Part shown: positions 44,281-62,539 of the stretch, piece after piece
Layout of the letters: the number at the start of each line of letters is the position of its first letter
Position numbering within the stretch: position 1 is the stretch's first letter
Notes under the pieces: generated by a model
Database searches by the model: none
Told to the model about the DNA's origin: nothing
Seen by the model: only the letters and a program-made list of their open reading frames with translations
Source: Patescibacteria group bacterium
GTDB lineage: Bacteria; Patescibacteriota; Patescibacteriia; CAIXNZ01
Length of the DNA stretch: 64,000 nt
Assembly (NCBI GenBank): GCA_041651155.1
Contig: JBAZJU010000001.1
Coordinates: 91,932 to 155,931 of the forward strand
Direction: 5' to 3'
Position numbers and translations under genes: made by a program

Positions 44281-44302
44281 TTGTCCACGATAATGTGGAC
44301 AA
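44281..44302. promoter_or_regulatory. Perfect palindrome TTGTCCAC-N6-GTGGACAA just upstream of the HTH gene; candidate operator
   Basis: ttgtccacgataatgtggacaa lies 16 nt upstream of the - strand start codon. A 13-bp GC hairpin (aggttcggcctcc/ggaggccgaacct) lies further upstream at 44352-44385. Confidence 0.5.
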
Positions 44303-45113: not shown

Positions 45114-46470
45114 AATTTACAACTCAAATAAAACAATGAAGAAACGCGACCTTCTCAAACAAATTAATAATTTGAAAAAAACAATTAAGCCTGATTCAGC
45201 CTGGCAAAAGGCAAATCGGGAGATTTTGCTGTCTCAAATCAAATCCCAGACCAGCGCAGAATTTTCTTATAGCCACAAAATAATGCTGCAGAATTTATTT
45301 CTGGCTGTTTATAAGCCGGTTGGCAGCATGATTTTAATTTGCAGCGTTTTATTCGGCGCCTGGATTGCCAGCGTGGGGGCGACTAAAAACAGCCAGCCGG
45401 GCGATTTATTATACGGCTTGAAATTAACCGCAGAAAGAATGCAGGTTAATTTGACTATGAATGATGAAAAACGTACTAATTTAGAAATCGCTTTTGCTGA
45501 AAGAAGGTTAGATGAAATCAAGCAGACTACTGCCAAAGACGGTTCAAACAAAAACAAGAAGAATCTGGAAGTAACCCTGAAAAATTTTCAGGAAAGCATA
45601 AATAATGTCAAAAGCAATCTGGCCAAATTAGAAGCGACTGATAAGCAGGCTGCTTTGAAAGTTGCTGATTTAATTGATGAAAAGACCAAGTCTTATGTCG
45701 GGATATTAAAAGATCAACAAGATCAAAATCCGCAATTTGTGGCGAGTGAAAACGCTGAACAGGCTATTTCAGATTCCAAAGCAACAGGCAATAAAGCTTT
45801 AAGCGTGATTTTGGAAGAGTTTGAAGCCGGCAATAGCGGCTTGAAAGTTGATGATTTAAGGCAAAAAATTAATACCAGAATTGATGATTTGGATAAAAAC
45901 ATAGAATCAGCCAAAAGTGATATCCCCCTGATTATTGAGAATAAGAAAATAGCTGATGAAGCGGCCGCTGCCAAAGCTCTGGCGGATAAAGAAGCTGCCA
46001 AAAAAGCCGAGGAAGAAGCCGCCGCTAAGGTTTTGGCGGATAAAGAAGCCTTGGCGAAAACGGAGCTAAGCTCCGACGCTTCGGAGCTTAGCTCCGTTCA
46101 GGAAGTTGCTAATACCAATACTAATACATCACCAGAACCGGTTAAAGAAGCCCAGCCAGAATTACAGAACACTAATAGTTCAGCTGAAATCAAGCAAGAT
46201 GAGCAAATAGTTAGCCAGCCTGAAGAGGTTTTGCCAACGATTGATGAGATTAAAAATAAGCCTGCAGAAGCCGCAGCCTTATTGGTCAGAGCGCGTGATT
46301 ATGTAAAAAGCGGTTCTGTGAGCCAGGCTTTTGATCTGGTAAAACAGGCTGATGACATTATGACTTTGGTCAATAAAGTGATTAAGGCAAATAGTGTTTA
46401 TTTAGAAGCACCGGAAGAAGTGAAGGTAGGTGAACCGGTTGATGTAATGACGAACCTTCGTTTGCAGTAG
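45094..46470 (+). CDS. Putative anti-sigma factor (single-pass membrane, coiled-coil, Ala/Lys/Glu-rich)
   Basis: It overlaps the sigma gene by 20 nt, suggesting translational coupling. A TM helix lies at about residue 76-96. The periplasmic part is helical and low-complexity. Confidence 0.45.
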   Translation: MKLIKNKIYNSNKTMKKRDLLKQINNLKKTIKPDSAWQKANREILLSQIKSQTSAEFSYSHKIMLQNLFLAVYKPVGSMILICSVLFGAWIASVGATKNSQPGDLLYGLKLTAERMQVNLTMNDEKRTNLEIAFAERRLDEIKQTTAKDGSNKNKKNLEVTLKNFQESINNVKSNLAKLEATDKQAALKVADLIDEKTKSYVGILKDQQDQNPQFVASENAEQAISDSKATGNKALSVILEEFEAGNSGLKVDDLRQKINTRIDDLDKNIESAKSDIPLIIENKKIADEAAAAKALADKEAAKKAEEEAAAKVLADKEALAKTELSSDASELSSVQEVANTNTNTSPEPVKEAQPELQNTNSSAEIKQDEQIVSQPEEVLPTIDEIKNKPAEAAALLVRARDYVKSGSVSQAFDLVKQADDIMTLVNKVIKANSVYLEAPEEVKVGEPVDVMTNLRLQ

Positions 46471-47458: not shown

Positions 47459-50400
47459 ATGATTAAGAAAATTTTTACTGTTGGCGTGGTAGTATTGACC
47501 ATTTTTTGGGCTGTCGGTCTAGCAGCATTTGTTCCAACCGCTCAGGCTACAACTTTTAGCTCTGGCGATTTGATCAAAGCTTCTTTACCAGCAGTTTATT
47601 ACTACGGTGCTGACGGCAAAAGGTATGTGTTCCCAAACGAACCAACATACAAAACCTGGTATGCTGACTTCTCCAGCGTGAAAACTATCACTGACGGAGA
47701 ATTAGCCACCATTCAAATCGGCGGCAATGTCACTAACAAACCAGGCGTTAAAATGGTGAAAATCACCACTGATCCAAAAGTATACGCTGTGGCTGCAAAT
47801 GGCACATTGAGGTGGGTAACCACTGAATCACTTGCTGCTTCTTTATACGGTTCTAACTGGGGAGCAATGATTCTTGATGTGTCTGATGCTTTCTTTGTTA
47901 ATTACTCTATTGGCGCTCAAATCAGCAATGTTTCTGATTATTCTCCATCTGCTGCAACTGCTGCTGCTCAATCAATCAATGTTGATAAGGGCTTAGCAGG
48001 CGCAACAACAACTGGCGGTAATTTAAATGTTTCTTTAGCATCTGATACACCAGCTGCTTCTACAGTTGCTGGCGGTGCTGCTGCTAATATGTCAAAGATC
48101 ATTTTAGCTACTGGTTCCGCAGCTGTTAAAGTTAAATCTTTATACATCACTCGTTCAGGCTTAAGCGCAAACGATGATGTTGAAAATGTTAAATTAATCA
48201 ATGTTGCTGGCGCTACTGTTGGCGATGTTGGTTCATTTGGTTCAAACAGCAAAGCATTAATTTCTTTTGTTCCATCATTAGAAATTGCTGCTAATACTTC
48301 AGTCTCATATTATGTCCGTGCTAGTATCAGATTAGGCGCTCCTGCTGGCAACACGGTTGCTTTGGGCGTTGCATTAAATACTGATGTAGTATTGGAAGCA
48401 GGTACTGTTAGCGGTGCATTCCCAGTCGTTGGCAACTACATGTCAATTGTAGCTTTAGCTAACATTGGCAGTGCTACTGTTGGCCAAGATGCAGCAGTTG
48501 TCGATACTATGCCAGATGCTGGCGCAAAAAGAGTTCAGGTCTCTGAATTTTACGTCATGGCTGGTGCAAATGAAGATTTGACTATTGAAGCTATGAGTTT
48601 AATTGAAGCTGGTTCAGCAAATACTGCTGATTCAGCTAATATTGAATTATACAGTTTGACAGAAGGTAGAACATTGGGCACTGCTGCTTCATGGGATGCA
48701 AATTCTCGTGTTACTGTTGGTAGCATGAATGTTGTTATTCCAAGAGGTGGTAAACACATTTTCCAGGTTTATGCTGATATCGTAAGCGGTTCAGGCAACG
48801 TTATTGATGTTGATTTAACTGATGGTACTGATGTTTTAGTAACTGTTAAGGGTAATACCTATGGTTTTTATCTTTCTCCAATAGTTGCTGTGACTCCTCC
48901 ATTAAACTGGGATGGTCAAGGTATTCCAGGAGTAGGTGGTCAAACCGTAGGCGCTGGTTTATTAAATGTTACTAAATCAACTTCTTCTCCAGCTACTGGT
49001 AATATTGCTCGCGCTTCTGATCAGGCAATTGCAACTTATGATTATGAAGTACGAGGTGAATCTATTAAGATTACTTCAACTATGGTTACAATTACAGAAG
49101 GTGCTGCATTTAATAATGTTGTTCCAAACTGGAATAGAGTTGCTAATGTGAAATTAGTTGATGAAAACGGTTTAGTTGTTGCGGGCCCAAAGAATTTAAC
49201 AAATGTATCTGTCGGCGCTGCCGGTGGTGTTACAACTGTTACTTTCAATGAAACTTATGTTGTACCAACTGGTACTCATAAATACACTGTTAAAGTTGAT
49301 GTTTTGAGCAATGCTCCAGCTGGCGCAACAGCTACTTTGGTAGCTAGTTTAACTCCAAGCGCTGATATTACAGCAACTGGGGTTACAACTCGTGAAAGTG
49401 TAGTTCCAACGCCTGCTGTTGCTGTCGCTGGCAATGGTGAGACTATCTTGGGTGTAGCATTAACTGTTACCAATTTAACTCAACCAGCTGCTAGATCAAT
49501 TGCTGTTGGTACTCAGAATTTTGTCTGGGCAACTACTTCATTAGATGCAACTGCTTCTGGTGAAGATGTTCGTGTTTCATCTGTTACAGTTTTGGATACT
49601 TTAGGTGTTGGTAATACTGATGATATGACTGCTTTGCAGAATCTTTCAATCTGGGCAGATTTAACATCAGCTAGTTCTACTCGTGGTGATGCTTATGAAA
49701 CAAAGGTTTCTAATAATGAGCAGCCAACACTTGCTACTACTAAAGCAATTAACTTAACACAAGTTATCACTGTTCCAAAAGGAACTTATGTTAAGATTGC
49801 TGTTGTTGGTAATTTATCAACCTTAGCATTTGTTACAGATACTCACCAGATTAGTATTGCTGCGCCTATAACAGCAACTGGTAAATCAACAGGCAATGCT
49901 CCTGTTATCCCAGCTATTATTACTTTGGGACAGGTAATGCTTGTATCTGCTTCTGGTACTTTAACTGCGTCATTAGATGCTTCTACTCCATTAGCTAATA
50001 TTGTAGTTAGTGGTGCACAAAAGGTTACTGTTGCTGCTTTCAAATTAACAGCTGATAATATTGAAGCTATTGAACTTGATGATCTTTTGGTTAATGATGT
50101 TGCGGCAATTGCTACAAATCCAGTTGCATCAAATTGGTACTTGTATGCAAATAGTCGCGCTGATGGCGGTTCAATTGCTGATCCGGTTGCTGTAGCTGCT
50201 GGCGGTTTTGCGCCACAATTCATTTTAGCTGATAATACAATTGTTGTTCCATCTAATAGCAGTGTTGTCTTGACTCTTAAAGCAGACATCGCCCCTGTTG
50301 ATGGCGCTACTGTAATTAATGGTGATGATTTAATCCCAGAAATTACTGCAGCTGCAAGCATAAATGCTACAGGCGTGTCTTCTGGTGTCCCAGCCACCAT

Positions 50401-50956
50401 CTTTAATGGTCTTGGCTGGTTCCCAAAAACTGCTGCTACAGATTTGGCATTTGCTTCAAAACCAACTATCAGCCTAAATGCTTCTTCTCCAAGCGGTGCC
50501 TTAGTGCCAAGCGCTAATACTTTAGTAGCCATCTTTAATATTGCTGCTGATTCAGCTGATGATATTTCCTTTGATGACGCTGGAAGCGCAGGCACAAAAT
50601 TAGTAGTTACTATGGCTGAAGCTTGTACTGGTGCTGGTGGCGCTACAAATATGATTTTGAAAGACGAAGGTGGCACAGTTTTATCTACCGCAACAGAAGC
50701 TGCTGATGCATGTACTGTTGGCAATAAGACATTTGAAGTCTGGACTAACCCATTAGTTATTGCTAAAGGTACCACCAAGAAAGTATATGTCTATGGTGTT
50801 ACTACTAGTGCAACAACTGCTGGTGATAATTTACAGGCTTCTATTACAGATGCTGCTGCTGGCAATGTTACTTGGGGTATTAATGGTGCAGGTGCTTTTG
50901 CAACTGCTGCCATTACTGCTCGTGGTTCAATTTATGCCAATGCACTTTCTAGATAA
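47459..50956 (+). CDS. Large secreted surface (S-layer-like) protein, 1165 aa, with the N-terminal shared ~125-aa domain
   Basis: A signal peptide (AFVPTAQA), then GDLIKASLPAVYYYGADGKRYVFPN...LRWVTTESLAASLYGSNW. A/T/S/G/V-rich with few Cys. Paralogous to 54421. Confidence 0.8.
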   Translation: MIKKIFTVGVVVLTIFWAVGLAAFVPTAQATTFSSGDLIKASLPAVYYYGADGKRYVFPNEPTYKTWYADFSSVKTITDGELATIQIGGNVTNKPGVKMVKITTDPKVYAVAANGTLRWVTTESLAASLYGSNWGAMILDVSDAFFVNYSIGAQISNVSDYSPSAATAAAQSINVDKGLAGATTTGGNLNVSLASDTPAASTVAGGAAANMSKIILATGSAAVKVKSLYITRSGLSANDDVENVKLINVAGATVGDVGSFGSNSKALISFVPSLEIAANTSVSYYVRASIRLGAPAGNTVALGVALNTDVVLEAGTVSGAFPVVGNYMSIVALANIGSATVGQDAAVVDTMPDAGAKRVQVSEFYVMAGANEDLTIEAMSLIEAGSANTADSANIELYSLTEGRTLGTAASWDANSRVTVGSMNVVIPRGGKHIFQVYADIVSGSGNVIDVDLTDGTDVLVTVKGNTYGFYLSPIVAVTPPLNWDGQGIPGVGGQTVGAGLLNVTKSTSSPATGNIARASDQAIATYDYEVRGESIKITSTMVTITEGAAFNNVVPNWNRVANVKLVDENGLVVAGPKNLTNVSVGAAGGVTTVTFNETYVVPTGTHKYTVKVDVLSNAPAGATATLVASLTPSADITATGVTTRESVVPTPAVAVAGNGETILGVALTVTNLTQPAARSIAVGTQNFVWATTSLDATASGEDVRVSSVTVLDTLGVGNTDDMTALQNLSIWADLTSASSTRGDAYETKVSNNEQPTLATTKAINLTQVITVPKGTYVKIAVVGNLSTLAFVTDTHQISIAAPITATGKSTGNAPVIPAIITLGQVMLVSASGTLTASLDASTPLANIVVSGAQKVTVAAFKLTADNIEAIELDDLLVNDVAAIATNPVASNWYLYANSRADGGSIADPVAVAAGGFAPQFILADNTIVVPSNSSVVLTLKADIAPVDGATVINGDDLIPEITAAASINATGVSSGVPATIFNGLGWFPKTAATDLAFASKPTISLNASSPSGALVPSANTLVAIFNIAADSADDISFDDAGSAGTKLVVTMAEACTGAGGATNMILKDEGGTVLSTATEAADACTVGNKTFEVWTNPLVIAKGTTKKVYVYGVTTSATTAGDNLQASITDAAAGNVTWGINGAGAFATAAITARGSIYANALSR

Positions 50957-51009
50957 TTGTTGATTCACTGAGATATATTCTTTCCGCGCTCGCGGAATAG
51001 AATAGCGAA

Positions 51010-51044
51010 CCCCTCTGGCGCAAGTCAGGGGGGTTTTGTTTTGG
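51010..51044 (+). terminator. rho-independent terminator (cccctctg..cagggggg plus T-run)
   Basis: An 8-bp stem with one G-U, followed by ttttgttttgg. Confidence 0.6.
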
Positions 51045-51259
51045 TGGAAGAATGGTGGTTTGGGAGGAATTTATCAACCTCCCCCAATCCCCCTCCTTTT
51101 CTAAGGAGGGGGTATGGAGGTTATCATGACCTAAGGTGCAGGGCTTTGGGTTTTGTTTTTTGGGGAAGATCGTGGAGGGAGTGGGACGGTTGATTTGTTT
51201 TGTTTAGGGATTTATGGTATTATAAAGGGAGCAATTATTTAATATTCAATTTAAAAAAT

Positions 51260-51517
51260 ATGAAAGAAAAAAATAAATTACAATTTAATATTATTTTTAG
51301 GCCTGAAGAAGAAGGTGGATTTACTGCAATAGTTCCGTCTTTGCCAGGTTGTATTACTTACGGCAAAGATTTAAAAGAAGCTAAAAAAATGGCGATTGAT
51401 GCAATTTATGGCTATATTGAATCAGTAAAAAAACATAAAGAAGAAATACAGTCAGATGAGGAAAGTTTTATTAGTTTAATTAGGCTTCCTCAAAAGCACT
51501 CTAGACTTTATGCCTAA
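51260..51517 (+). CDS. hicB: HicB family antitoxin (UPF0150 N-domain)
   Basis: EEGGFTAIVPSLPGCITYGKDLKEAKKMAIDAI. The ORF-track start at 51200 lies inside the conserved promoter repeat, so the real start is 51260. Confidence 0.65.
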   Translation: MKEKNKLQFNIIFRPEEEGGFTAIVPSLPGCITYGKDLKEAKKMAIDAIYGYIESVKKHKEEIQSDEESFISLIRLPQKHSRLYA

Positions 51518-51734
51518 ATTGCCATCATTAACTCCAAAGAAACTTTTACGAGTATTGGAAAAATGCGGGTTTGTAACAGACCATATAGCCGGCAGCCACT
51601 ATATCCTTTTTCAATCCGCTTCAAATAAAAGAATTACATTGCCATTCCATTGTAAAGATTTGCCAAAAGGTACCCTCCACTCTATTTTAAAGGCAGCCGG
51701 AATTGAAATAACAGATTTGAAAAAATTAAAATAA
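51510..51734 (+). CDS. hicA: HicA family mRNA interferase toxin
   Basis: LLRVLEKCGF...GSHYILF...LPFHCKDLPKGTLHSILKAAGI. It overlaps hicB by 8 nt. Confidence 0.7.
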   Translation: MPKLPSLTPKKLLRVLEKCGFVTDHIAGSHYILFQSASNKRITLPFHCKDLPKGTLHSILKAAGIEITDLKKLK

Positions 51735-51948
51735 CTCGTCTCGGCTCGCCTCGCGAAGCGGGCTTCGCTGGACATAGATATCGTTTTTGTCCCTTGAGTG
51801 CCTTCGCCGAAGTCGGATGAAAAACACAAATCTCGCCATTTTTTAAAGGGCGTTTTTTGTTTTGCTCTGTAACACATTTGGTGCAGGGCTTTGGTTTTTA
51901 CGATAAAATTAAGGTCGGAAACCCCATAAATTTGGGTTTTATGCCGTA

Positions 51949-52014
51949 TTGACTTTTGGCAGAAAAAGAAGTAAAATGAAAGTAGTTTCAATAAAAATGA
52001 AAGTAGTTTCAATT
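51949..52014 (+). promoter_or_regulatory. Promoter TTGACT-N17-TAAAAT with two 17-nt direct repeats (ATGAAAGTAGTTTCAAT x2) as a candidate operator of the MNT-HEPN pair
   Basis: The -35 is at 51949-51954, the -10 at 51972-51977. The direct repeats are at 51976-51992 and 51998-52014. Confidence 0.5.
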
Positions 52015-52016
52015 TT

Positions 52017-52547
52017 ATGAATATTAAATTGACCATTCTCAATAAGAAAGTATTTAATTTCTTGGCTGATTGGCCTGAAAAACAGTTTTTTTCTAAGGAA
52101 ATCTCCGACAGATTGGGGATATCTTTGGGTGGCGCCCATAACAGCCTCAAGGCTCTGCTAAAGGCAGGCGTGGTTGTTTTTGAGCAAAAAGGGAATATGA
52201 AGTTTTTTAAAATTAACTTTAGCAGCCCTTTGTTTAAACAATTGCGCTCGGCAGGCATTGTGGAGAGCCTTTTGCCTTTGGTTAAGAAAATAAAAAATCA
52301 CTGCCTCAATGTGATTTTATTCGGCTCCGCGGCCAGGGGCGAACAGACTGCCAAAAGCGATATTGATATTTTTATATTAACCAATAATCCGTTGGAAATA
52401 AGAAAATTACTGCCAGCCAAAATTAACCGACTGCTTCTTAAGGCCATAATTAAAAAACCGAATGAGTGGAGCGAAATGGAAATTAAGGAACCGGAGTTTT
52501 TTAGGGAAATAAAAAACGGGATTAAATTATATGAATCAAGATTTTAA
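52017..52547 (+). CDS. Nucleotidyltransferase (MNT, minimal NTase) with an N-terminal winged-helix; antitoxin-type partner of HEPN
   Basis: ILFGSAARGEQTAKSDIDIF matches the GS-x9-DxD NTase motif. Confidence 0.7.
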   Translation: MNIKLTILNKKVFNFLADWPEKQFFSKEISDRLGISLGGAHNSLKALLKAGVVVFEQKGNMKFFKINFSSPLFKQLRSAGIVESLLPLVKKIKNHCLNVILFGSAARGEQTAKSDIDIFILTNNPLEIRKLLPAKINRLLLKAIIKKPNEWSEMEIKEPEFFREIKNGIKLYESRF

Positions 52548-52968
52548 TGATTGCCTGGACAAGGGCAAGATAAAAATATTTTCCAGGGGGAAGTTTGTTG
52601 CCCCTAAGGAAATCAGATTGGCTGAGGAAGACTTGAAGATTGCCTCGGCAAGCTTTAGTGACGGCAATTTTCGCTGGTGCGTGATTCAGACGTATTATTC
52701 TATGTTTCATTCAGCGAGAGCCTTATTGTATTATCAAAATTATCGGGAGCATAGCCATTATTGCCTTATTCAGGCAATCAGAGCATTGTATGTTGGAAAC
52801 AAATTATTGGATTTGTCACTGGTTGAAGCAATGGCCGAAGCGAAAAATCTGAGGGAAGCCGCGGATTATTACGGAGATTATAGCCAAATTAACGCGGAAA
52901 AATTATTGGAACATGCCAAGAATTTTTTAAAAGCGGCAAAGGATATTATAAAAAATGGTACTTTATAG
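52531..52968 (+). CDS. HEPN domain protein (toxin-type partner of MNT)
   Basis: Helical; FHSARALLYYQ and LREAADYYGDY fit the Rx4-6H-type HEPN motif region. It overlaps the MNT gene by 17 nt. Confidence 0.65.
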   Translation: MNQDFNDCLDKGKIKIFSRGKFVAPKEIRLAEEDLKIASASFSDGNFRWCVIQTYYSMFHSARALLYYQNYREHSHYCLIQAIRALYVGNKLLDLSLVEAMAEAKNLREAADYYGDYSQINAEKLLEHAKNFLKAAKDIIKNGTL

Positions 52969-53238
52969 CGGACTTCAGTCCGCGAATGACCCCATTACCT
53001 TACGGGGACTTCCACCGTCGCTCTGTGAGTTATGGCGGACAAGAAAGTCCCCTGTAATGATTTTTCTTTGTTAAGGTCCTCTGTAATGATTTCTCTTTAT
53101 TTTTATGATAAAATTAAGGTGGAAAACCCCATAAATTTGGTTTAAGGAGGGGGTGTTTACAGGAGTTTTTTATTTGTTTTGTTTAGGGATTTATGGTATT
53201 ATGAAAGGAGCAATTATTTAATATTTTATTTAAAAAAT

Positions 53239-53508
53239 ATGAAAGAACAATCCTGCCTGCCGGCAGGCAGGTTAAAAATTTCAAAATTTGGCAGGCAATT
53301 GCCTATTGTTATTGAAAAAGGGGAAGATGGTTTTTATATTGTAGAATGCCCGCTTTTTGACGGTTGTTTTACACAGGGTAAAACAATTGATGAGGCGCTT
53401 AGAAATATTAAAGAAGTCATATCTTTGATTTTGGCAGAAAAAGACGCCAGAAATACTTTGAAGGAATATAAATCAACAGAATTTAGTTTGCATACCATTA
53501 CCGTTTAA
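53239..53508 (+). CDS. HicB-like antitoxin, second copy
   Basis: EDGFYIVECPLFDGCFTQGKTIDEALRNIKEVI. The ~80-nt upstream region (53164-53241) is a repeat of 51185-51262. Confidence 0.6.
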   Translation: MKEQSCLPAGRLKISKFGRQLPIVIEKGEDGFYIVECPLFDGCFTQGKTIDEALRNIKEVISLILAEKDARNTLKEYKSTEFSLHTITV

Positions 53509-53511
53509 TTT

Positions 53512-53703
53512 ATGACCCGCTTACCCATTATTTCCGGCAGGAAATTGATTAAAGTTCTTAATAAGGTTGGTTATGAATCTATCAGGCATCAAAGGCGTGG
53601 ATGGTTGCTGTTACTGATTATAAAGTTATTGACCGATCATTATTATTAAAGATATTGCGCGATGCAGAATTATCCGCAGATGATTTTATGAAGTTGATGA
53701 ATT
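53512..53703 (+). pseudogene. hicA-like gene, frameshifted; contains a 33-nt segment identical to part of the tmRNA gene
   Basis: Frame 1 encodes MTRLPIISGRKLIKVLNKVGYESIRHQ. Frame 3 continues KAWMVAVTDYKVIDRSLLLKILRDAELSADDFMKLMN, which aligns to the HicA C-terminus. The segment 53580-53612 equals 30350-30382. Confidence 0.55.
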
Positions 53704-53761
53704 AATATTTGAATATATATATTTACAGACCGCCTGGCCTTTCCGGGTGGTTTTGTTTTTT

Positions 53762-53795
53762 GCCCTGCACCAGTCGCTTCTCTCCGGTGCAGGGC
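53762..53795 (+). repeat. REP-like perfect hairpin gccctgcacc-N14-ggtgcagggc upstream of the transposase; solo half-copies occur at 51135 and 51890
   Basis: A 10-bp perfect inverted repeat. ggtgcagggcttt recurs three times in the island. Confidence 0.55.
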
Positions 53796-53846
53796 TTTAT
53801 ATTTTGGAAATTGAATGGTAAAATTAAGGTGGGGAAAAATAAAAAT

Positions 53847-54395
53847 ATGAATGAATTATTTAAAAATAAATATCGTACAGATTCCGTTCGTTTAAAAGAA
53901 TGGGATTATTCTTGGCCGGGTTTATATTATGTAACAATTTGTACCAAGGATCGTTTTTGTTGTTTAGGGGATGTAAAAAATGGTTTGGTTTATTTATCGG
54001 AAATTGGGAAAATCGTGTTTGAAGAATGGTTAAATACGCCAAAGATCAGACCGAATGTGGCGTTGGATGATTTTATTATAATGCCGAATCATATTCATGG
54101 AATTATAGAAATTAAAGAAATTGGGGATGTTGTAGAGACGCATTGCAATGCGTCTCTACAGAAACCCACATTCGGCCCGCAACGCAATAATTTGGCCTCA
54201 ATAATTCGTGGTTTTAAAGGGGTTGCCAAGAAAAGAATAAATCAAAAATTTGGAGAAAATTATTTTGCCTGGCAATCTGGCTATTACGAACACATTGTCC
54301 GGGACGAAGATGATTATGCCAGAATTAAAGAATATATTGCCTTAAATCCGATCAGATGGGAACTTGACAGAAATAATCCAAAAAATAGATCCTAA
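53847..54395 (+). mobile_element. IS200/IS605-family Y1 (HUH) transposase, RAYT-like
   Basis: The HUH motif PNHIHGIIEI and the catalytic Tyr region QSGYYEHIVRDEDDYARIKEYIALNPIRW. The ORF track extends it to 53709. No room exists for a right-end hairpin before the next gene. Confidence 0.7.
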
Positions 54396-54420
54396 AATAT
54401 TAATTATAAATTTTAAAATT

Positions 54421-56397
54421 ATGTCAAAACGAATTTTCACAATCGGAATTGTGGCTATGACCATATTGTGGTCTATTGGCTTGTCTGCTTTTACACCAAG
54501 CGCGCAGGCAGCCACAATTAATTCAGGCGATTTAATTAAGGCTTCCACGCCTGCGGTTTATTATTATGCCAATGACGGCAAACGCTATGTTTTTCCCAAT
54601 GAAAAAACATTTAAAACCTGGTATGCTGATTTTTCCAGTGTGAAAATAATTACAGATGCAGAATTGTCTGCTATTTCTATTGGCGGCAACGTTACTTACA
54701 GACCCGGAGTTAAAATGGTAAAAATCACGACCGATCCCAAAGTCTATGCTGTGGCTAGCAATGGGACATTGCGCTGGATAACAACAGCCTCTTTGGCCAC
54801 GCAATTATATGGCGCAAATTGGGCGACAATGGTTGATGATGTGCCTGATTCATTTTATGTGAATTATAATGTTGGTTCGCCAATTAATAATCTGACTGAT
54901 TATAATCCTGCAGCCACAACCGCAGCTTCCCCTTCAATTAATGCTGATAAAAGCTTGATTATGCCGACTGTTGGTTCAGTTTTGACAGTTTCTCTGGCAC
55001 CTGATACACCGGCTGCTGGTACTGTGCCTGCTGGTACGACTGTTAATTTTACTAAGATTATTTTTAGCGCGAGTAATTCAGCAGTCAGCATTAATTCAAT
55101 CTATGTAACGCGTTTTGGCTTGAGTACAAATAATGATGTAACTAATATTCAGTTTGTTAATACCAGTAATGTGGCGATTAGCAGTATTGCGAGTTTAGGT
55201 TCTGATAGCAAAGCCTTAGTTACATTTAGCCCTGCTTTAATTGTTAATCCAAATAGTCCTGTGAGCGTATATATCAGGGCAAACATTAGCCAAACAATCT
55301 CAAGTGGTAATACTATAGGTTTGGGTATTAATTCAGCCAGTGACATTAAATTGGCTCCAGGCACAATTAATGGCATCTTTCCAATGCTAGGAAATTATCT
55401 GGGCAGCAGCTCTTCTGCCAATATTTCAGGTTTAACCCCGCCGGAAGGAATTTTAATTGCTGGCAGAAGTAAACAGGGCGTAGCTTCGTTTAAAGTCCAG
55501 GCAGGCCAGGCAGAAGATATGGATTTAAATAGCGTCACAATCACTGATACAGGCACTGGCAAAGTAGCTAATACCTGGTATTTATATTCAAGCAAAAGAA
55601 ATGACGGCATTTCTATCAGCGAACCGGTGGGAACTGCGATTATGGACTCAGTGAATAAAAATGCCAGATTTATTTTGCCTACCAATACGATAATTATACC
55701 TGCCAGCCAAAGTGTTACTTTGACAGTTGCAGTTGATGCTGTGTTAGTTGATGGGGTGACAGTGCAAAATGGCGATACGCTTCACGCAATTGTAGCGGCT
55801 GGAACTGATATTGTGGCCACAGGCAAGGCTTCTGGCCAGCAAATAAACGGCAGCGCCGTACTTGACTCTAAAATATATTATATCTTAGCCTCTTACCCTT
55901 ATTTCAGCCTGGATGCTGCTTCGCCAAAAGGAGCCTTAGTGCCTGGAGCCAATACCTTGCTGGCTATTTATGATGTGACAGCTGACTCGGCTGATGAGGT
56001 GGACTTTTTAAACGCAGGGACAAATACTTCTGGCGTGGCTAATAAGTTAAGGGTTGATATCGCGCACAATTGTACTGCCGGCCTTGGTTTGGGGCTCACT
56101 TTGAAAGATGAAGCTGGCAATGTGCTGGACACTCAGGCAGTTGATGTGTGTAATAGCGCCAGCGCAACTTTTACCTTTGGCAATCCTAATAATTTGGCAA
56201 TTGCAGCCGGCGCCACAAAAAAATTATATATTTACGCTGATACTCAAGGCGCGACCAGCGCAGGGGATAGCATTCAGCTTTATTTAAGCGATTCAAATCC
56301 GGCAAATGTTGATTTCGCGATAAATGGAGCAGGTAATTATCAATTTGCCCAGTTTATTTTCAGAAGCAATATTTATAGCAATCCTTTGGCGAGATAA
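54421..56397 (+). CDS. Secreted surface protein, paralog of 47459, with the N-terminal shared domain
   Basis: A signal peptide (AFTPSAQA), then GDLIKASTPAVYYYANDGKRYVFPN.... It is collinear with the 47459 N-terminus and C-terminus (...YSNPLAR versus ...YANALSR). The ORF track starts at 54364. Confidence 0.8.
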   Translation: MSKRIFTIGIVAMTILWSIGLSAFTPSAQAATINSGDLIKASTPAVYYYANDGKRYVFPNEKTFKTWYADFSSVKIITDAELSAISIGGNVTYRPGVKMVKITTDPKVYAVASNGTLRWITTASLATQLYGANWATMVDDVPDSFYVNYNVGSPINNLTDYNPAATTAASPSINADKSLIMPTVGSVLTVSLAPDTPAAGTVPAGTTVNFTKIIFSASNSAVSINSIYVTRFGLSTNNDVTNIQFVNTSNVAISSIASLGSDSKALVTFSPALIVNPNSPVSVYIRANISQTISSGNTIGLGINSASDIKLAPGTINGIFPMLGNYLGSSSSANISGLTPPEGILIAGRSKQGVASFKVQAGQAEDMDLNSVTITDTGTGKVANTWYLYSSKRNDGISISEPVGTAIMDSVNKNARFILPTNTIIIPASQSVTLTVAVDAVLVDGVTVQNGDTLHAIVAAGTDIVATGKASGQQINGSAVLDSKIYYILASYPYFSLDAASPKGALVPGANTLLAIYDVTADSADEVDFLNAGTNTSGVANKLRVDIAHNCTAGLGLGLTLKDEAGNVLDTQAVDVCNSASATFTFGNPNNLAIAAGATKKLYIYADTQGATSAGDSIQLYLSDSNPANVDFAINGAGNYQFAQFIFRSNIYSNPLAR

Positions 56398-56420
56398 AAA
56401 ATTTAAAGATTACAGCTCCT

Positions 56421-56455
56421 AGGCTCGTCGGCGAGATACGCTTGTCTCGCCGACG
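56421..56455. repeat. Perfect 13-bp GC-rich hairpin (ctcgtcggcgaga..tctcgccgacgag), REP-like; followed by a 10-bp inverted-repeat pair at 56467-56478 and 56518-56530
   Basis: No flanking T-run on either strand. The GC-rich composition is foreign to the surrounding sequence. Confidence 0.5.
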
Positions 56456-56632
56456 AGGAAATTTGGGACTCAATTCCCAATTGTAGATAATTATAAGCGG
56501 TTGTTTAGGAAGTAATTCGGAATTGAGTTCCGTTGCCAGCTCATTTTTATGGGCTGGTTTGTTTTTAAAGCGATATTTTGATAAAATTAAGGTATACATA
56601 TAAATCAATAATTAAATTTTAAATCAAAACTT

Positions 56633-58267
56633 ATGCGTAAAATCATTTTCTTATTTTTGATTTCATTAATTTTAGTTGTGCCTCAAGCTAAGGCATTTCA
56701 GTCCAATGCTATTGTTAATAATGGCGCGCCTTATACGACTTTTTACCGCGGTACTTTTGATGATTTGGTCATGGATTTCAGCTTAATTACTCTAAATGCC
56801 GATACGGTTAAGGCAATTTCTTTAAAAAATTTAGGCACTTCCAGCTACTTGCGCGATATAACATATATGAAATTGTGGGCTGATGAAGGGCCGCTTGGGT
56901 TCCAGGGCATGGGCATTGACCGCGAAATCGGGACTCTGAGCTATTCAACGACATACTTGTCTTGGTCAATTGAAAACCTTAACGAAATAATCAATACAAG
57001 TGAAAGATTTTTTATCTCAGTGGAAACTTATTCCAGTTTGAGTGCTTCAACCACCATTCATATGCAGATTCCTATTTTAACGGATAATAACAATAATGGC
57101 AGCTATGATGCCGGCGACTTTGGCATTTTTATGGATTCTGGCAATAATGGACCGACTGATGTGAACATTGATAATGCCAATACACAAGTAACCAGCACCT
57201 CGTCAGTTGATAGCTTGACGCCAAAAGTGATTTTAGCAAATTTGAATGATGGCGCGATTTTAACAAATGATAATTTTATTATCAACGGTTTGGTGCGTGA
57301 TCAGGGCAATACTTATCTGCAAACATTCCAGATAATTATTGATGATCAGGCAATCAGCATTGATAATTACGATCAGTTTAACTATACCTGGAATTATAAT
57401 TGGCAGAATATCAGCGATGGAAAACATACAGTGAGTGTTTTGGCGCGCGATGGCTGGGGCAATACTACCCAGACCAATCCATTAACGATTACTGTGAATA
57501 AGCAGCTATTTTCAGTTGCAAATTCAGCAGCGACAATTGATAAGTCAGGGATTAAAAATGACGGTTTGGATAAGGCCACGGTCACTGTAATTATCAAAGA
57601 TCAAAACAATCTGCCAATAGCGAATCGTCAGATAACAGTGGAAACGAGTTCGGATGTGATTATTTCCAATCCGACTAATAATTCTGATGCAAGCGGGAAA
57701 ATTGTTTTTGAAGTAAGATCCACCGCTTTAGGCCTGAAAACAATAGCAGTTAAGGTTGCTGATACGCTTTTGCAGACTTTAACTTTAAACGTTAATACGG
57801 GAATTCAGCCTGCTTTTGGCCTTAATTTTGGGGATTTAATCAAAGCCTCAACTCCGGCTGTTTATTATTACGGGGCTGATGGCAAAAGATATGTTTTTCC
57901 CAATTTAAAAACATATTTGACCTGGTATAATGATTTTTCTGGAGTTAAAGCAATTACTGATGAACAGCTCGGACAAATTACAATCGGCGGGAATGTGACA
58001 TATCGTCCGGGAGTTAAACTTGTTAAAATTACTACTGATCCAAAAGTTTACGCCATAGACAGCCATGGAACTTTGCGCTGGATTACCTCTGAGCAACTGG
58101 CTATCCAGCTGTATGGCGCTAAATGGAATACACTGGTTGAGGATGTCTCAGATGCTTTTTTTGTTAATTACTTGACGGGAAACCAGATAAATTCTTTGAG
58201 TGATTTTAGTCCGGTTGATGTTAAAAATGCGGCTGGTACGATTAATATTGATAAGGGGTTATTATAG
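56633..58267 (+). CDS. Secreted protein with bacterial Ig-like (Big_1-type) domains and the C-terminal shared domain
   Basis: A signal peptide. KATVTVIIKDQNNLPIANRQITVETSS...GKIVFEVRSTALG is Big-like. The C-terminus reads GDLIKASTPAVYYYGADGKRYVFPN.... Confidence 0.6.
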   Translation: MRKIIFLFLISLILVVPQAKAFQSNAIVNNGAPYTTFYRGTFDDLVMDFSLITLNADTVKAISLKNLGTSSYLRDITYMKLWADEGPLGFQGMGIDREIGTLSYSTTYLSWSIENLNEIINTSERFFISVETYSSLSASTTIHMQIPILTDNNNNGSYDAGDFGIFMDSGNNGPTDVNIDNANTQVTSTSSVDSLTPKVILANLNDGAILTNDNFIINGLVRDQGNTYLQTFQIIIDDQAISIDNYDQFNYTWNYNWQNISDGKHTVSVLARDGWGNTTQTNPLTITVNKQLFSVANSAATIDKSGIKNDGLDKATVTVIIKDQNNLPIANRQITVETSSDVIISNPTNNSDASGKIVFEVRSTALGLKTIAVKVADTLLQTLTLNVNTGIQPAFGLNFGDLIKASTPAVYYYGADGKRYVFPNLKTYLTWYNDFSGVKAITDEQLGQITIGGNVTYRPGVKLVKITTDPKVYAIDSHGTLRWITSEQLAIQLYGAKWNTLVEDVSDAFFVNYLTGNQINSLSDFSPVDVKNAAGTINIDKGLL

Positions 58268-58322
58268 AATTTTAAATTTTAAATTTTAAATTTTAAGTCA
58301 ATTTTAAATAGTTTAATTATAA

Positions 58323-59888
58323 ATGAAGAAGTTTCAATTCATTATTGGTCTTTTAATATCCAGCCTTTTAGTGGGCAGTTTTGCTTTTGCGCAGGAATTA
58401 TTGCCAAATGATCCATATTATAGCCGGCAATGGTATTTGGAAAAATTAAACCTGCCCCAAATCTGGGCGCAGGAAACCGGCTCAAAAAATGTAATTATCG
58501 CAGTCATTGATTCTGGCATTGATGTTTCACACCCTGATTTGCATGATAATATCTGGGTTAATCAAAAGGAAATCCTAGGCGATGGCATTGATAATGACCA
58601 TAATGGCTATATTGATGATATTAGCGGCTGGGACTTTATAAATAATAGCAATGATCCTTCGCCCAAATATGATGTTAGTTGCTTGCAAAATAACACTTGC
58701 ACTGAAGACGGCATTTTTCACGGCACATTTGTGGCCGGGGTGGCTGCGGCTGTCGGCAATAATGGCATTGGCACAACAGGGGTTGCTTGGAATGTAAAAA
58801 TAATGCCGCTGAGAGTGCTGAATGAAAATGGCAGCGGCAATACTGTAGACGTGGTTAAAGCTATTGAATATGCGATTAATAATGGCGCCAACATCATTAA
58901 TTTAAGTTTTGTCGGCGACACATATGATTTAGCTTTAGAACAGGCATTGGTCAACGCTTATCAAAAGGGATTAGTGATAGTGGCTGCTTCTGGCAATGAA
59001 AATCAGGCTGGCCAGGCAATTAATTTAGATTTAACTAAAATGTACCCAGTCTGCCATCAAGGTCCTGGCGGCCAAAGAATATTACTTGGCGTGGGCGCAA
59101 CAGACATTTTTAAAAAAATAACCGAGTTTTCCAATTACGGCTCAAGCTGTGTTGATATCATGGCGCCTGGCAGAGATTTTTTTGGCACCCTGGTCTATAA
59201 TCCTCAGGTGAGCAGTTTTAATCAATATTATGGCGGTAATTTTTCCGGCACTTCTTTGGCTGCGCCTGTTGTTTCAGGCGTGGCCGCTTTAATAAAATCA
59301 TATAAGCCGGAATTGACCAACCAGCAGATCATGGATGCAATTAATAAGAATGCTGAAAATATTGATGCGCTAAATCCTGCCTTTGTAGGGAAAATGGGCA
59401 ATGGCTTGATAGATCCGGTTAAAATTTTTCAGAATTTGAAAATGTCTGTAATTAACAGCCAATTGATCAAGGGTTCCACGGCTGCAATTTATTATTTAGG
59501 CAGTGATGGCAAACGCTATACTTTCCCGGATCAAAAGGTTTTTTTTAGCTGGTATGACAGCTTTAAGGGCATTAAACAAATTTCCGATCGGGAATTGTCT
59601 GATTTTACACTGGGAGGAATCGTAACTTACAGGCCAGGCGCAATGGTTAAAATTCAAACTGATCCAAAAGTGTATGCAGTAACCCAGGGCGGTATTCTAA
59701 GATGGATTAAAAATGAAACAATAGTCCAGGCATTGTATGGCAATGTTTGGGCGCAATTAATTTTTGATGTGCCAGATTCTTATTTTGCTATTTATAAAAT
59801 TGGCGCTGACATAAATAGCGCGCTAGATTTCAATCCTGTCATAGAGAAAAATAATGTACCTTCAATTGATATAGATAAGAGCTTATAA
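58323..59888 (+). CDS. Subtilisin-like serine protease (peptidase S8) with the C-terminal shared domain
   Basis: The catalytic triad contexts are VIAVIDSGID (Asp), HGTFVAGVAAA (His) and GTSLAAPVVSGVAAL (Ser). A signal peptide is present. Confidence 0.85.
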   Translation: MKKFQFIIGLLISSLLVGSFAFAQELLPNDPYYSRQWYLEKLNLPQIWAQETGSKNVIIAVIDSGIDVSHPDLHDNIWVNQKEILGDGIDNDHNGYIDDISGWDFINNSNDPSPKYDVSCLQNNTCTEDGIFHGTFVAGVAAAVGNNGIGTTGVAWNVKIMPLRVLNENGSGNTVDVVKAIEYAINNGANIINLSFVGDTYDLALEQALVNAYQKGLVIVAASGNENQAGQAINLDLTKMYPVCHQGPGGQRILLGVGATDIFKKITEFSNYGSSCVDIMAPGRDFFGTLVYNPQVSSFNQYYGGNFSGTSLAAPVVSGVAALIKSYKPELTNQQIMDAINKNAENIDALNPAFVGKMGNGLIDPVKIFQNLKMSVINSQLIKGSTAAIYYLGSDGKRYTFPDQKVFFSWYDSFKGIKQISDRELSDFTLGGIVTYRPGAMVKIQTDPKVYAVTQGGILRWIKNETIVQALYGNVWAQLIFDVPDSYFAIYKIGADINSALDFNPVIEKNNVPSIDIDKSL

Positions 59889-59901: not shown

Positions 59902-60309
59902 ATGATTATATTTAAAAAGCTTATATATCGGCAATTTTTTAAATTCTGTCTGGTGGGCGCAATTAATACTGTGATTGATTTCTCAGTATATTTATTTTTT
60001 AACCGTGTTCTTGGGCTTTATTTCCTTTACGCGAATATCCTGGCAATTTTAGCGGCCATGACATTTAGTTTCTTTGTTAATAAATATTGGACATTTCAAA
60101 ATAATGAAAAAAAACTGCATACTCAATATCTGAAATTCGCCCTGGTAAATTTGGTTTATTTTTTACTCTATAATTCAATTTTATTCGGCTTAGTTGAATA
60201 TTTTAAGGTTTTTGACCTGGCGGCAAAAATTATTGCCATAATAATCGGCTTATTTTGGAATTTTTTTGCCAATCGCCGCTGGACATTTAGGCCAGCCCCC
60301 AAAATTTAA
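59902..60309 (+). CDS. GtrA family polysaccharide-synthesis membrane protein
   Basis: FFKFCLVGAINTVIDFSVY...NKYWTF. Four TM helices, 135 aa. Confidence 0.75.
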   Translation: MIIFKKLIYRQFFKFCLVGAINTVIDFSVYLFFNRVLGLYFLYANILAILAAMTFSFFVNKYWTFQNNEKKLHTQYLKFALVNLVYFLLYNSILFGLVEYFKVFDLAAKIIAIIIGLFWNFFANRRWTFRPAPKI

Positions 60310-60386
60310 GGGGGCTTTATTTTTATGGTAAACTTTGCTAAAATAGGAATATCAAATTATTTGAATTAACAACTAATTTAAACATT

Positions 60387-61424
60387 ATGGCAAAAGCCAA
60401 AGCTTTATTTGAGAAAAAAAATATTTTAGTACTAGGGGGCGCTGGATTTATTGGCTCACATTTGTGCGATAAATTAGTGCAAAAGAGCAAGGTCATCTGC
60501 TTTGATAATTTTATTTCCGGACAAAGGGAAAATATTGACCATCTTCTGCAAAATGAAAATTTTATTTTTATTAATGATGATATTAATAATCTGACTGATT
60601 TAGAAAAATACAAAGAACTAGAGCGCTTCCAAGTAAAATTTCAGGGCATCCAGGAAATTTATAATTTAGCCTGTCCGACCTCGCCTAAAGATTTTACCAA
60701 GCAGACTGTTTACACTGCCCAGACAAACAGTCTGGGCACAATCCGCGCCTTGGATTTAGCTGTTAAATATAAAGCCAAACTGCTTCATTTCTCATCTTCA
60801 GTGGTTTATGGACCGCGCGGGGGTGAAGATCCTGTGATGAAAGAAAATGTTTATTATCCGCTAAGCCCTTTAACTCCCAGAGGGTGTTATGATGAAGGCA
60901 AGAGATTTGCTGAAACTTTGGTTTATACTTATCGTCAGTTTTATAATATAGATGCCAAAATTTTAAGAATTTTTACCACCTATGGTCCGCGCATGCCGCT
61001 TTTTGTCGGCCACATGATCCCGGATTTTATTGTCGCGGCTTTAGATAATCAACCGCTGATTATTTATGGCGATGAAAATTTTACCACCACCCTTTGTTAC
61101 ATAACAGATGTAATTGACGCTTGCTTTAAAATTATGGCCTCAACCGAGTCTGGCCCGTTTAATATCGGTAACCCAGAAGAATATAAAATTTCAGAGGTTG
61201 CCCAAAAAATATTAAAAATGACTGATTCGGAAGCGGAAATTCATTATGCCGAACCTCTTCTTTTTATGTCGCGTTTAGGTTTGCCAGATATCAGCCTGGC
61301 CAGAGAAAAATTACAGTGGTTTCCGATTACTTTATTAGAGAAAGGCTTGGAGGAAACAGTGGAATATAGCAAAGCCAATAAGGTGATAATTGATTGGAGC
61401 AAAGTTGAAGAAATTAAGGATTAG
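60387..61424 (+). CDS. NAD-dependent epimerase/dehydratase, UDP-glucuronate decarboxylase (UXS)-like
   Basis: The GGAGFIGSHL Rossmann motif, an FDNF.SG..EN pattern, an SSSVVYG catalytic Ser region, and a Y..K motif in the YDEGK context. Confidence 0.7.
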   Translation: MAKAKALFEKKNILVLGGAGFIGSHLCDKLVQKSKVICFDNFISGQRENIDHLLQNENFIFINDDINNLTDLEKYKELERFQVKFQGIQEIYNLACPTSPKDFTKQTVYTAQTNSLGTIRALDLAVKYKAKLLHFSSSVVYGPRGGEDPVMKENVYYPLSPLTPRGCYDEGKRFAETLVYTYRQFYNIDAKILRIFTTYGPRMPLFVGHMIPDFIVAALDNQPLIIYGDENFTTTLCYITDVIDACFKIMASTESGPFNIGNPEEYKISEVAQKILKMTDSEAEIHYAEPLLFMSRLGLPDISLAREKLQWFPITLLEKGLEETVEYSKANKVIIDWSKVEEIKD

Positions 61425-61492
61425 GATTAAATATTATGCATTAAGTAGAATATTTAAAAGGGTAGAGGGTTGGCTCTATCCTTTTGTGAAGT

Positions 61493-62539
61493 ATGAAAAA
61501 AGTAGCAATCATTATTGTAAATTATAACGGTTTAGAATACTTATCAGCTTGTTTGACGAGTTTATTGAGTTTGGATTATCCAAAAGAAGATTATAAAGTT
61601 TTTTTTGTTGATAATGCCTCAATAGACAGTTCGGTTGATTTTGTTAGAAATAATTTTCCGCAGGCTGAAATTATTATTAATAATGAAAATTTAGGTTTTG
61701 CCGAAGGTAATAATATTGCCATAAAAAAGGCTCTGGCTGAAAACTTTGACTTTGTTCTTTTGATTAATCAGGATACGATTTCTGAACCTGATTTTTTAAA
61801 AAAGTTAGTTGAAGAAACAGCCAAGGCAGAAGATATTGGAGCGGTTCAGCCGCGCATCATGTTGTATCCCGAAAAAGATAAGGTTAATTCTTTGGGTAAT
61901 TCAATCCATTATTTAGGTTTTGGTTTTTCCAGCGGCGGTTATCAGAAATTTGCCGGCAATTTAGAGCTAAAAGAAATCGCCTATGCCAGCGGAGCCGCGG
62001 TTTTAATTAAAACAAATGTGCTGAAAAAAATCGGGCTTTTTGACCCTGATTTTTTTATGTACCATGAAGATTTAGATTTGGGCTGGCGCATGCGCTTGGC
62101 AGGATATAAAATTTTAGTGGTGCCTCAAGCTGTTATTTATCATAAATATGAATTTAGCAAAAGCATAAAGAAGTATTATTTTATGGAACGCAATCGCTTT
62201 ATTTGCCTTTTGGAAAATTATAAGCCGGGAACTTTGATTTTAATTTTTCCTGCCTGGCTGGCAATGGAAATCGGTTTGTTTTTGTTTTCACTTAAGTCAG
62301 GGTTTTGGAAAGAGAAATTGAGGGCTTATGGGTATTTTTTTAAATTTTCTGCGTGGCAGAAAATTGGAAGGGTAAGAAGGGAAAGAAGGGTAAAAAGGGT
62401 AAAAGGGGATAAGGAAATTGTGGAATTATTTACAGGCAAGATTGAATTTCAGGAATTAGATAGCTGGCTTTTAAATAAAGTTGTAAATCCCATCTTTAAT
62501 TTGTATTGGCAAGTAATTAAAAGTTTGATAATTTGGTAG
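61493..62539 (+). CDS. glycosyltransferase family 2
   Basis: VAIIIVNYNGLEYL...FFVDNAS... DxD-like region, a GT-A fold and C-terminal TM helices. Confidence 0.8.
   Translation: MKKVAIIIVNYNGLEYLSACLTSLLSLDYPKEDYKVFFVDNASIDSSVDFVRNNFPQAEIIINNENLGFAEGNNIAIKKALAENFDFVLLINQDTISEPDFLKKLVEETAKAEDIGAVQPRIMLYPEKDKVNSLGNSIHYLGFGFSSGGYQKFAGNLELKEIAYASGAAVLIKTNVLKKIGLFDPDFFMYHEDLDLGWRMRLAGYKILVVPQAVIYHKYEFSKSIKKYYFMERNRFICLLENYKPGTLILIFPAWLAMEIGLFLFSLKSGFWKEKLRAYGYFFKFSAWQKIGRVRRERRVKRVKGDKEIVELFTGKIEFQELDSWLLNKVVNPIFNLYWQVIKSLIIW

Follow-up and report, generated by a model that had tools for sequence, protein, structure and literature searches.

What is the role of a segment that recurs at one end or the other of five secreted proteins encoded within a single stretch of patescibacterial DNA? 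The stretch (hereafter the window) comprises 64,000 nucleotides of contig JBAZJU010000001.1 from a Patescibacteria group bacterium. A first-pass annotation of it had reported an undescribed segment shared by two proteins resembling surface-layer (S-layer) proteins, an immunoglobulin (Ig)-like protein, a subtilisin and a protein with a proline-rich linker, and had likened the segment to the anchoring domains SLH and CWB2. The organisms concerned, the Patescibacteria (Candidate Phyla Radiation, CPR), account for a large part of bacterial diversity; most have yet to be cultured, they live attached to other cells, and their surface is almost unannotated. The present analysis revealed that the segment is a module of two tandem repeats, which is widespread in Patescibacteria and takes the place of PG_binding_1 and SLH in homologous S-layer proteins. 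It is considered probable (roughly 60%) that the module acts on its own as a non-covalent anchor to the cell envelope in many Patescibacteria, in the present case a relative of Falkowbacteria.

A duplicated module in five exported proteins

The five proteins, named here after the start positions of their open reading frames (ORFs), and their copies of the module are as follows.

47459-50956, + strand: long-form predicted S-layer protein of 1165 amino acids (aa), with signal peptide, module and a beta-rich lattice body of about 985 aa (ORF)
54421-56397, + strand: short-form predicted S-layer protein of 658 aa, with signal peptide, module and three all-beta domains (ORF and AlphaFold2 model)
56633-58267, + strand: secreted Ig-like protein of 544 aa with a C-terminal module (Big_1 and Big_13)
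58323-59888, + strand: secreted subtilisin of 521 aa with a C-terminal module (Peptidase_S8)
12751-14352, + strand: secreted protein of 533 aa, its body without an assigned family, with a PVVPP-type linker in mid-protein and a C-terminal module (ORF)
47546-47998, + strand: module copy 1, residues 30-180 of the 47459 protein, after the signal peptide (profile E 1e-80; the single-repeat profile matches twice)
54508-54960, + strand: module copy 2, residues 30-180 of the 54421 protein, after the signal peptide (profile E 4e-82)
57812-58264, + strand: module copy 3, residues 394-544 of the 56633 protein, extreme C-terminus, the copy used for the AlphaFold2 model (profile E 7e-83)
59439-59885, + strand: module copy 4, residues 373-521 of the 58323 protein, extreme C-terminus (profile E 6e-76)
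13894-14349, + strand: module copy 5, residues 382-533 of the 12751 protein, extreme C-terminus (profile E 1e-77)

A profile built from the five copies was run over the six-frame translation of the entire window and recovered exactly these five, all in plus-strand ORFs at the starts previously given, with E values from 6e-76 to 7e-83 and the next match at E 0.75. The copies share 42-72% pairwise identity over 149-151 residues, with 44 invariant columns and one single-residue gap, and chance resemblance is thereby excluded. The conserved unit had been given as about 125 aa, but it extends to about 150 aa, running on through a tail of the form DF.P....AA.SIN.DK.L. Since the three proteins with a C-terminal copy stop 1-4 residues past this tail, the boundaries of the domain are sharp. 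The module contains 12-13% aromatic residues and no Cys, with a near-neutral isoelectric point (median 5.6), a composition that is weak evidence for, and compatible with, a glycan-binding surface. Its invariant aromatic positions include Y18, Y19, W38, Y39, Y80, W90, Y101, W105 and Y120.

All five proteins open with a hydrophobic, signal-peptide-like segment that closes in an A-x-A type site, as judged by reading the sequences. The placements proposed earlier held at both ends: in the 47459 and 54421 proteins the module begins 4-6 residues past the predicted cleavage site (AQA followed by T and by A, respectively), and in the 12751, 56633 and 58323 proteins it forms the last approximately 150 residues before the stop. 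The ORF list has the 54421 protein begin with a TTG at 54364, but the ATG at 54421, which gives MSKRIF... parallel to the MIKKIF... of the 47459 protein, is the likely start. The 47459 protein recurs with 100% identity in a Patescibacteria metagenome-assembled genome (P0266, encoded on a 348-kb contig), and outside the module the 54421 protein is 41% identical to the 47459 protein. The earlier labels of subtilisin, Ig-like and proline-linker protein were also borne out. Pfam placed Peptidase_S8 over residues 55-347 of the 58323 protein (E 3e-51), in which the D/H/S motifs VIDSGID, HGTFVAG and GTSLAAP are legible, and detected Big_1 at residues 298-386 (E 7e-12) and Big_13 at residues 200-288 of the 56633 protein, whose arrangement of body and C-terminal module is repeated in 11 database relatives. 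The 12751 protein gave no match in Pfam and NCBIfam scans.

The internal structure of the module, like its true length, had been missed by the first-pass annotation. The structure prediction suggested there was run with AlphaFold2 on residues 394-544 of the 56633 protein with 40 aligned sequences, and yielded a model with a mean predicted local distance difference test (pLDDT) of 95.6 and a predicted template modelling score of 0.86, in which a double repeat is evident. Repeat 1 consists of strands 9-11, 18-20 and 26-28, helix 32-36, strand 45-47, helix 50-54 and strand 58-61; repeat 2 consists of strands 70-73, 79-83 and 87-91, helix 94-101, strand 109-112 and helix 114-119; and two short helices (134-140 and 144-148) form the tail. 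Profile-profile alignment of the two halves gave the expected register at a weak E value of 0.022. Moreover, 29 single repeats, drawn from the module and two divergent relatives, align in one register (G.LV....VY....G.(K/R)R.h.s...F...G..W..V), a profile of the single repeat matches exactly twice in each module protein and nowhere else in the window, and three database proteins (P0144, P0197 and P0205) show an additional partial match that covers repeat 2 alone. The module is thus a tandem pair of beta-beta-beta-alpha-beta-alpha repeats of about 57-63 aa followed by a short helical tail, the duplication being accepted because the order of secondary structure recurs, the 29 repeats align jointly and partial matches to repeat 2 alone exist.

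No known family accounts for this segment. The proposed Pfam search was run against a 2025 copy of Pfam-A and left the module without a match, at E values up to 1 for the full proteins and up to 10 for the isolated modules; within the same limits, none of the wall-binding repeats in Pfam (PF01471, PF00395, PF04122 and others) was found, nor did the EccB family (PF05108) match the module even at E values up to 10. NCBIfam 20.0, PHROGs and the PDB sequences, the last searched with the module profile, likewise gave no match, in agreement with the earlier statement that the segment is undescribed. Furthermore, all 120 of the best database relatives lack a precomputed Pfam domain on the module segment. 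In the searchable literature no description of the module was found, and the papers searched give PG_binding_1 as the sole anchor of Patescibacterial S-layer proteins. A confident match to a well-characterised family with a non-anchoring function, named beforehand as grounds for abandoning the anchoring proposal, did not emerge; the fold relatives found are the repeats of EccB, at weak scores. A wall anchor common to S-layer and other surface proteins is a well-known kind of element, and it is the module family itself that is new.

The N-terminal slot of S-layer proteins and the spread of the module

Patescibacterial S-layer proteins have been predicted in two sizes, with six Ig-like domains in 1131-1274 aa and three in 643-727 aa, and are represented by accessions including A0A1G2EN61 and GMX59286.1; their predicted assemblies are hexagonal pyramids that have the C-terminus at the tip, and PG_binding_1, listed for the Nealsonbacteria protein, is the sole anchor named for the phylum (bioRxiv 10.1101/2024.05.28.596244). 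Given this orientation, the N-terminal slot is predicted to be the cell-proximal end. In addition, proteins with peptidoglycan-binding and Ig-like domains are among the most highly expressed secreted proteins of Paceibacteria (Kuroda 2024, PMC10936435). The two window proteins of 1165 and 658 aa share the published layout of signal peptide, N-terminal anchor and beta domains and fall within the six-Ig and three-Ig sizes, in line with their earlier description as S-layer-like paralogues. The AlphaFold2 model of the 658-aa protein (pLDDT 88.1) contains a helix at residues 3-23, the module at 38-176, a low-confidence linker at 182-184 and three beta domains at about 187-330, 343-476 and 485-658. 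Architecture, size and the existence of homologues bearing PG_binding_1 point to kinship of the window proteins with the published S-layer proteins.

A search restricted to the lattice body of the 47459 protein (its residues 181-1165) returned 108 homologues, whose N-termini were sorted by a seed-based classification, with the following result.

This module: 37 of 108
PG_binding_1: about 45 of 108 (26 by precomputed PF01471, the remainder via seeds)
SLH or SLH-like: 6 of 108
Repeat variant A: 9 of 108
Repeat variant B: 6 of 108
N-terminally truncated: 3 of 108
Other: 2 of 108

Homologues of 1100-1300 aa carry PG_binding_1, SLH or the module at the N-terminus, and the module is therefore interchangeable with PG_binding_1 and SLH in homologous S-layer proteins. 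Variants A and B proved to be related to the module in profile-profile comparisons over the whole double repeat (E 1e-5 with a probability of 82 for A, and E 5.6e-7 with a probability of 92 for B), so that the three belong to a wider superfamily of N-terminal double repeats in which the module is the best-conserved branch. Module-bearing S-layer homologues match the window copy at a median identity of 65% in the module and 35% in the lattice body, and such slower change would fit a conserved ligand.

The census across CPR genomes that had also been suggested revealed that the module is widespread in Patescibacteria and joined to many unrelated fusion partners. A HMMER search of 1.84 billion cluster representatives (50% identity) returned 5,435 clusters at E<=1e-3, 4,181 at E<=1e-10 and 2,377 at E<=1e-30, and at least 533 module stretches were confirmed in a set of one genome per GTDB species. 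Among the matches listed, Falkowbacteria were the closest (85% identity), together with Uhrbacteria, Buchananbacteria, Parcubacteria and entries named 'Patescibacteria group'; matches labelled Acidobacteriota, Verrucomicrobiae, Gammaproteobacteria, archaeon or Acutalibacteraceae were taken to bear placeholder names or to result from mis-binning. In a search for relatives outside Patescibacteria, a divergent single-repeat profile (A7) gave no match at E 1e-3 among 5.8 billion sequences, the profile being too short for such a database. Of 270 proteins, 242 carry the module N-terminally and 17 C-terminally; 7 have it at both ends, and in 4 it is internal. Across 80 independent genome loci with 124 module ORFs, 94 of which are complete, 78 of the complete ORFs carry it N-terminally and 16 C-terminally. 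The clustering of four module genes within 12.4 kb in the window is typical, as 35 of the 80 loci also hold two or three module genes within 6.4 kb.

The non-module parts of the 270 proteins fall into at least 45 unrelated classes, and all fusion partners seen are extracytoplasmic proteins. The largest class is a cupredoxin of about 83 aa (PF00127/PF13473), which contributed 96 partner segments in the first search and occurs at the C-terminus of proteins of about 263 aa behind a signal peptide and the module (e.g., P0030, P0043 and P0062); none is encoded in the window. A surface-tethered blue-copper protein is without explanation in organisms thought to lack respiratory chains. Other large classes are a body of about 1000 aa that covers both S-layer-like proteins of the window, a Big_7 class and the Ig-like body of the 56633 protein, and the partners identified by Pfam include Peptidase_C25, a trypsin-like protease, Peptidase_S11 (DD-carboxypeptidase), the glycoside hydrolase families GH10 and GH114, SNase with LTD, CARDB with a beta-helix, LVIVD and YHYH. 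Stand-alone forms, consisting of a signal peptide and the module in 175-185 aa, also exist.

Fold relatives and the case for wall anchoring

Foldseek comparison with the PDB placed 11 entries of EccB on top, 7nps and 7np7 among them (best E 5e-3, probability 0.96, template modelling (TM) score about 0.3), followed by the binding domain of the lysin LysIME-EF1 (6ist). The single-repeat profile met EccB1 among the PDB sequences at a sub-threshold E of 0.6-0.8, through a stretch of 23 aa in register with the repeat consensus, a weak match that is non-significant alone and agrees with the fold result. The best PDB match of the same profile, Crov588, was spurious and consists of FNIP-type repeats. 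Judging from the model, the repeat appears to resemble an EccB-type repeat in fold, at weak scores. The module nevertheless lies outside the EccB family because it has no sequence match to it, comprises two repeats versus four plus a core and occurs in a different context. The best NCBIfam match of the 58323 subtilisin was the type VII protease mycosin (TIGR03921), at 172.8 bits and thus under the cutoff of 278.75. Mycosin and EccB are partners in ESX systems, and the fusion of a mycosin-like subtilisin to EccB-like repeats may be a coincidence, as NCBIfam holds few generic S8 models.

Among the viral models of BFVD, the best match was an uncharacterised 115-aa protein of Rhodococcus phage Weasels2 (A0A1I9SA71), which covers the whole double repeat at E 1.5e-6 with TM scores of 0.59/0.74, and an uncharacterised 102-aa protein of Streptomyces phage LukeCage (A0A345MGB2) was a further top structural match. 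Both phages infect hosts that possess EccB-type type VII secretion systems. Weaker BFVD matches include CHAP, M23, amidase, lysozyme and lysin proteins. A tblastn search of 50,697 phage genomes, the structural relatives in actinophages included, gave no match to the module, and a single IMG/VR contig (IMGVR_UViG_3300033066_000406) carried it; lysin fusions therefore lend no support. The gene on that contig (584-2089) encodes a 501-aa protein with a signal peptide, the module and a body of no assigned family. Its neighbours are ORFs of 331 aa, in which a motif like that of lytic transglycosylases (GAYQFMPATW) is seen, and of 559 aa. The contig could derive from a Patescibacteria phage, with the protein displayed on the wall of the host, or from a host fragment wrongly called as viral.

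The wall-anchor reading is favoured because the module fills the slot of PG_binding_1 and SLH, which are established wall-binding domains, at the end predicted to face the cell, and because it is common to the S-layer protein and many unrelated exo-proteins, is terminal and evolves more slowly than its cargo. Occurrence on S-layer proteins and unrelated enzymes, terminal position and exchange with known anchors are the marks of the class of non-covalent anchors, and the module displays each of them. The analogy with SLH and CWB2 drawn in the first-pass annotation is supported computationally by this exchange of anchors, the promiscuity of the module, its terminal position and its conservation above that of the cargo. 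All five recognisable surface proteins in the window use the module, and seed searches of the six-frame translation of the window for PG_binding_1 or SLH gave nothing credible. By the mechanism proposed, the module-bearing proteins would be exported via the Sec pathway, and the module, placed either at the N-terminus of the mature protein or at the very C-terminus, would bind a conserved component of the cell's own wall, the ligand presumably being peptidoglycan or a wall-linked glycopolymer. Such binding would fix the base of the S-layer lattice and retain exo-enzymes and further cargo (subtilisin, Ig-like proteins, cupredoxins, glycosidases, nuclease and DD-carboxypeptidase) on the cell surface. 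The fusion to DD-carboxypeptidase fits such proximity to peptidoglycan.

Several observations weigh against this reading. Cryo-electron microscopy structures of ESX systems show the periplasmic domains of EccB as an oligomeric scaffold. One protein of 365 aa (P0239) carries the module (residues 103-254) and then PG_binding_1 (residues 307-362); the two are therefore not mutually exclusive, and their ligands may differ. Moreover, peptidoglycan binding by EccB is no more than a hypothesis put forward by Wagner et al. (2016, PMC4769845), and the orientation of the S-layer pyramid is a preprint prediction rather than a measurement (bioRxiv 10.1101/2024.05.28.596244).

The oligomeric nature of EccB also bears on the idea that the module is a docking or oligomerisation unit of the S-layer, binding itself or the lattice and forming a ring or mesh beneath the lattice with which accessory proteins would co-assemble. 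The closest fold, that of the EccB periplasmic repeats, builds an oligomeric ESX assembly (7nps, 7np7), the S-layer and accessory proteins have the same module, and the presence of the module at both ends of some proteins would suit cross-linking. However, PG_binding_1 or SLH, whose targets are wall polymers and not proteins, fills the slot in homologous S-layer proteins, and the stand-alone forms make little sense as lattice parts, though not impossible as such; a docking role is regarded as unlikely. Patescibacteria are episymbionts, and a module that directs enzymes and adhesins to a polymer of the host or the environment, as a host-adhesion domain or a substrate-targeting carbohydrate-binding module (CBM), would accord with the proposal of Kuroda et al. 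that highly expressed secreted proteins with peptidoglycan-binding domains mediate host attachment (PMC10936435), as well as with the GH10, GH114, protease and nuclease fusions, which resemble CBM-enzyme architectures. Yet neither of the commonest partners, cupredoxin and the S-layer protein, is directed at a substrate, the end of the S-layer protein that bears the module is the one predicted to lie next to the cell, and the module's conservation across lineages with presumably different hosts argues for a ligand in the cell's own wall, which makes binding to a host or substrate quite unlikely.

An export or sorting domain that a secretion or attachment machinery would recognise and possibly remove, like the C-terminal domain of type IX secretion, is suggested by the extreme C-terminal place of the module on the protease and the Ig-like protein. 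The module is nevertheless N-terminal, right after the Sec signal peptide, in about 80-90% of copies, a stand-alone form exists, and a highly conserved globular fold of 150 aa exceeds known sorting domains in size and conservation. A C-terminal sorting signal was accordingly rejected on the counts of N-terminal copies (242/270 proteins and 78/94 complete ORFs), and a sorting function in general is deemed highly improbable.

Beyond wall anchoring itself, it may be conjectured, tentatively and with less than even odds, that the module is the main surface-display tag of much of the Patescibacteria and a new wall-binding fold family with a conserved, possibly lineage-specific wall ligand, sharing ancestry with the EccB repeats. 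If this were true, the scaffold of type VII secretion would be built from a wall-binding repeat, the fusion of a mycosin-like subtilisin to an EccB-like repeat in the window would be a trace of an old association, and the whole surface proteome (S-layer, blue-copper proteins and scavenging hydrolases) could be read from genomes via the module. The link to EccB, if real, would also bear on the role of EccB in type VII secretion.

Neighbouring genes and comparison with known systems

Between the two S-layer paralogues, positions 50957-54420 hold a small island that is mobile or defence-like, with the following features.

51200 and 53179: HicB-like antitoxin genes
52017: nucleotidyltransferase gene, overlapping the HEPN gene at 52531
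53709: IS200-like Y1 transposase gene
51190-51271 and 53169-53250: direct repeat of 82 nt, 93% identical, covering the starts of both HicB-like genes
51895 and 53100: repeat of 44 nt

The module cluster is flanked (59902-62539 and 42644-46470) by envelope-glycan genes, namely a GtrA-like gene (59902), a NAD-dependent epimerase/dehydratase gene (60387) and genes for glycosyltransferases of families 2 (GT2, 61493) and 4 (GT4, 42644). Genes for an extracytoplasmic function (ECF) sigma factor (44508) and a DUF5667 protein (45094) also lie nearby. The flanking glycan genes could relate to synthesis of the wall-polymer ligand. Upstream of the 12751 module gene, a plus-strand ORF of 2383 aa (3582-10733) has no Pfam match at E 1e-3 and may encode another giant surface protein. 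Two long ORFs lie antisense to other genes, one of 311 aa (49843-50778, - strand) over the 47459 gene and one of 215 aa (51611-52258, - strand) over the nucleotidyltransferase gene, and both are probably artefacts of biased composition of the opposite strand.

As a wall anchor, the module, which is found in at least 5,400 protein clusters and lacks a Pfam or NCBIfam model, would mark surface-displayed proteins. Thousands of hypothetical proteins could then be annotated as surface-tethered, among them the abundant cupredoxin and proteases, nucleases and glycosidases that plausibly serve scavenging. In addition, the module would account for the attachment of predicted S-layers in lineages without a PG_binding_1 anchor, and a tagged module would offer a specific probe to stain or capture uncultured Patescibacteria.

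Comparison with known systems places the module closest, in fold and at weak scores, to the periplasmic repeats of EccB, nearly its sole fold match in the PDB. Each of the R1-R4 repeats of EccB1 folds its 50-57 residues into a four-stranded sheet and two helices, and R1 bears a weak similarity to PlyCB, through which a phage lysin binds the wall (Wagner et al. 2016, PMC4769845). Judging from its model, the module may resemble R1-R4 (PDB 3x3m, 4kk7, 7nps) in repeat length (about 50-57 aa in EccB) and in the combination of a sheet with two helices. EccB, however, carries a transmembrane helix at its N-terminus, arranges four repeats about a central beta-sheet core and is part of a secretion machine, whereas the module is mobile, has two repeats and occurs on Sec-exported proteins. 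Partner genes of type VII secretion (EccC, EccD and WXG100 substrates) were absent among the window neighbours scanned (a subset of the ORFs), which instead comprise GtrA, epimerase, GT2, GT4, ECF sigma factor, MscS-like and toxin-antitoxin genes. The wall-binding units of phage lysins (PlyCB, 6ist) are, like the module, small alpha/beta units.

PG_binding_1 (PF01471 / IPR002477) lies, like the module, between the signal peptide and the Ig-like lattice domains of homologous proteins, with a presumed role as a tether. Its sequence is unrelated, and the predicted fold of the module, a double beta-beta-beta-alpha-beta-alpha repeat in 150 aa, differs from that of PG_binding_1, a helical bundle of about 60 aa. 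SLH anchors surface proteins in Bacillus, where it requires a pyruvylated secondary wall polymer, and CWB2 does so in Clostridioides; both act as three tandem copies in a pseudo-trimer, whereas the module has two repeats of another fold and no sequence match to either. In their deployment, the SLH (PF00395) and CWB2 (PF04122) domains of Bacillota are nonetheless like the module, being common to the S-layer protein and surface enzymes, placed at either terminus and encoded by clustered genes, and SLH stands in for the module in 3-6 of the homologous Patescibacterial S-layer proteins.

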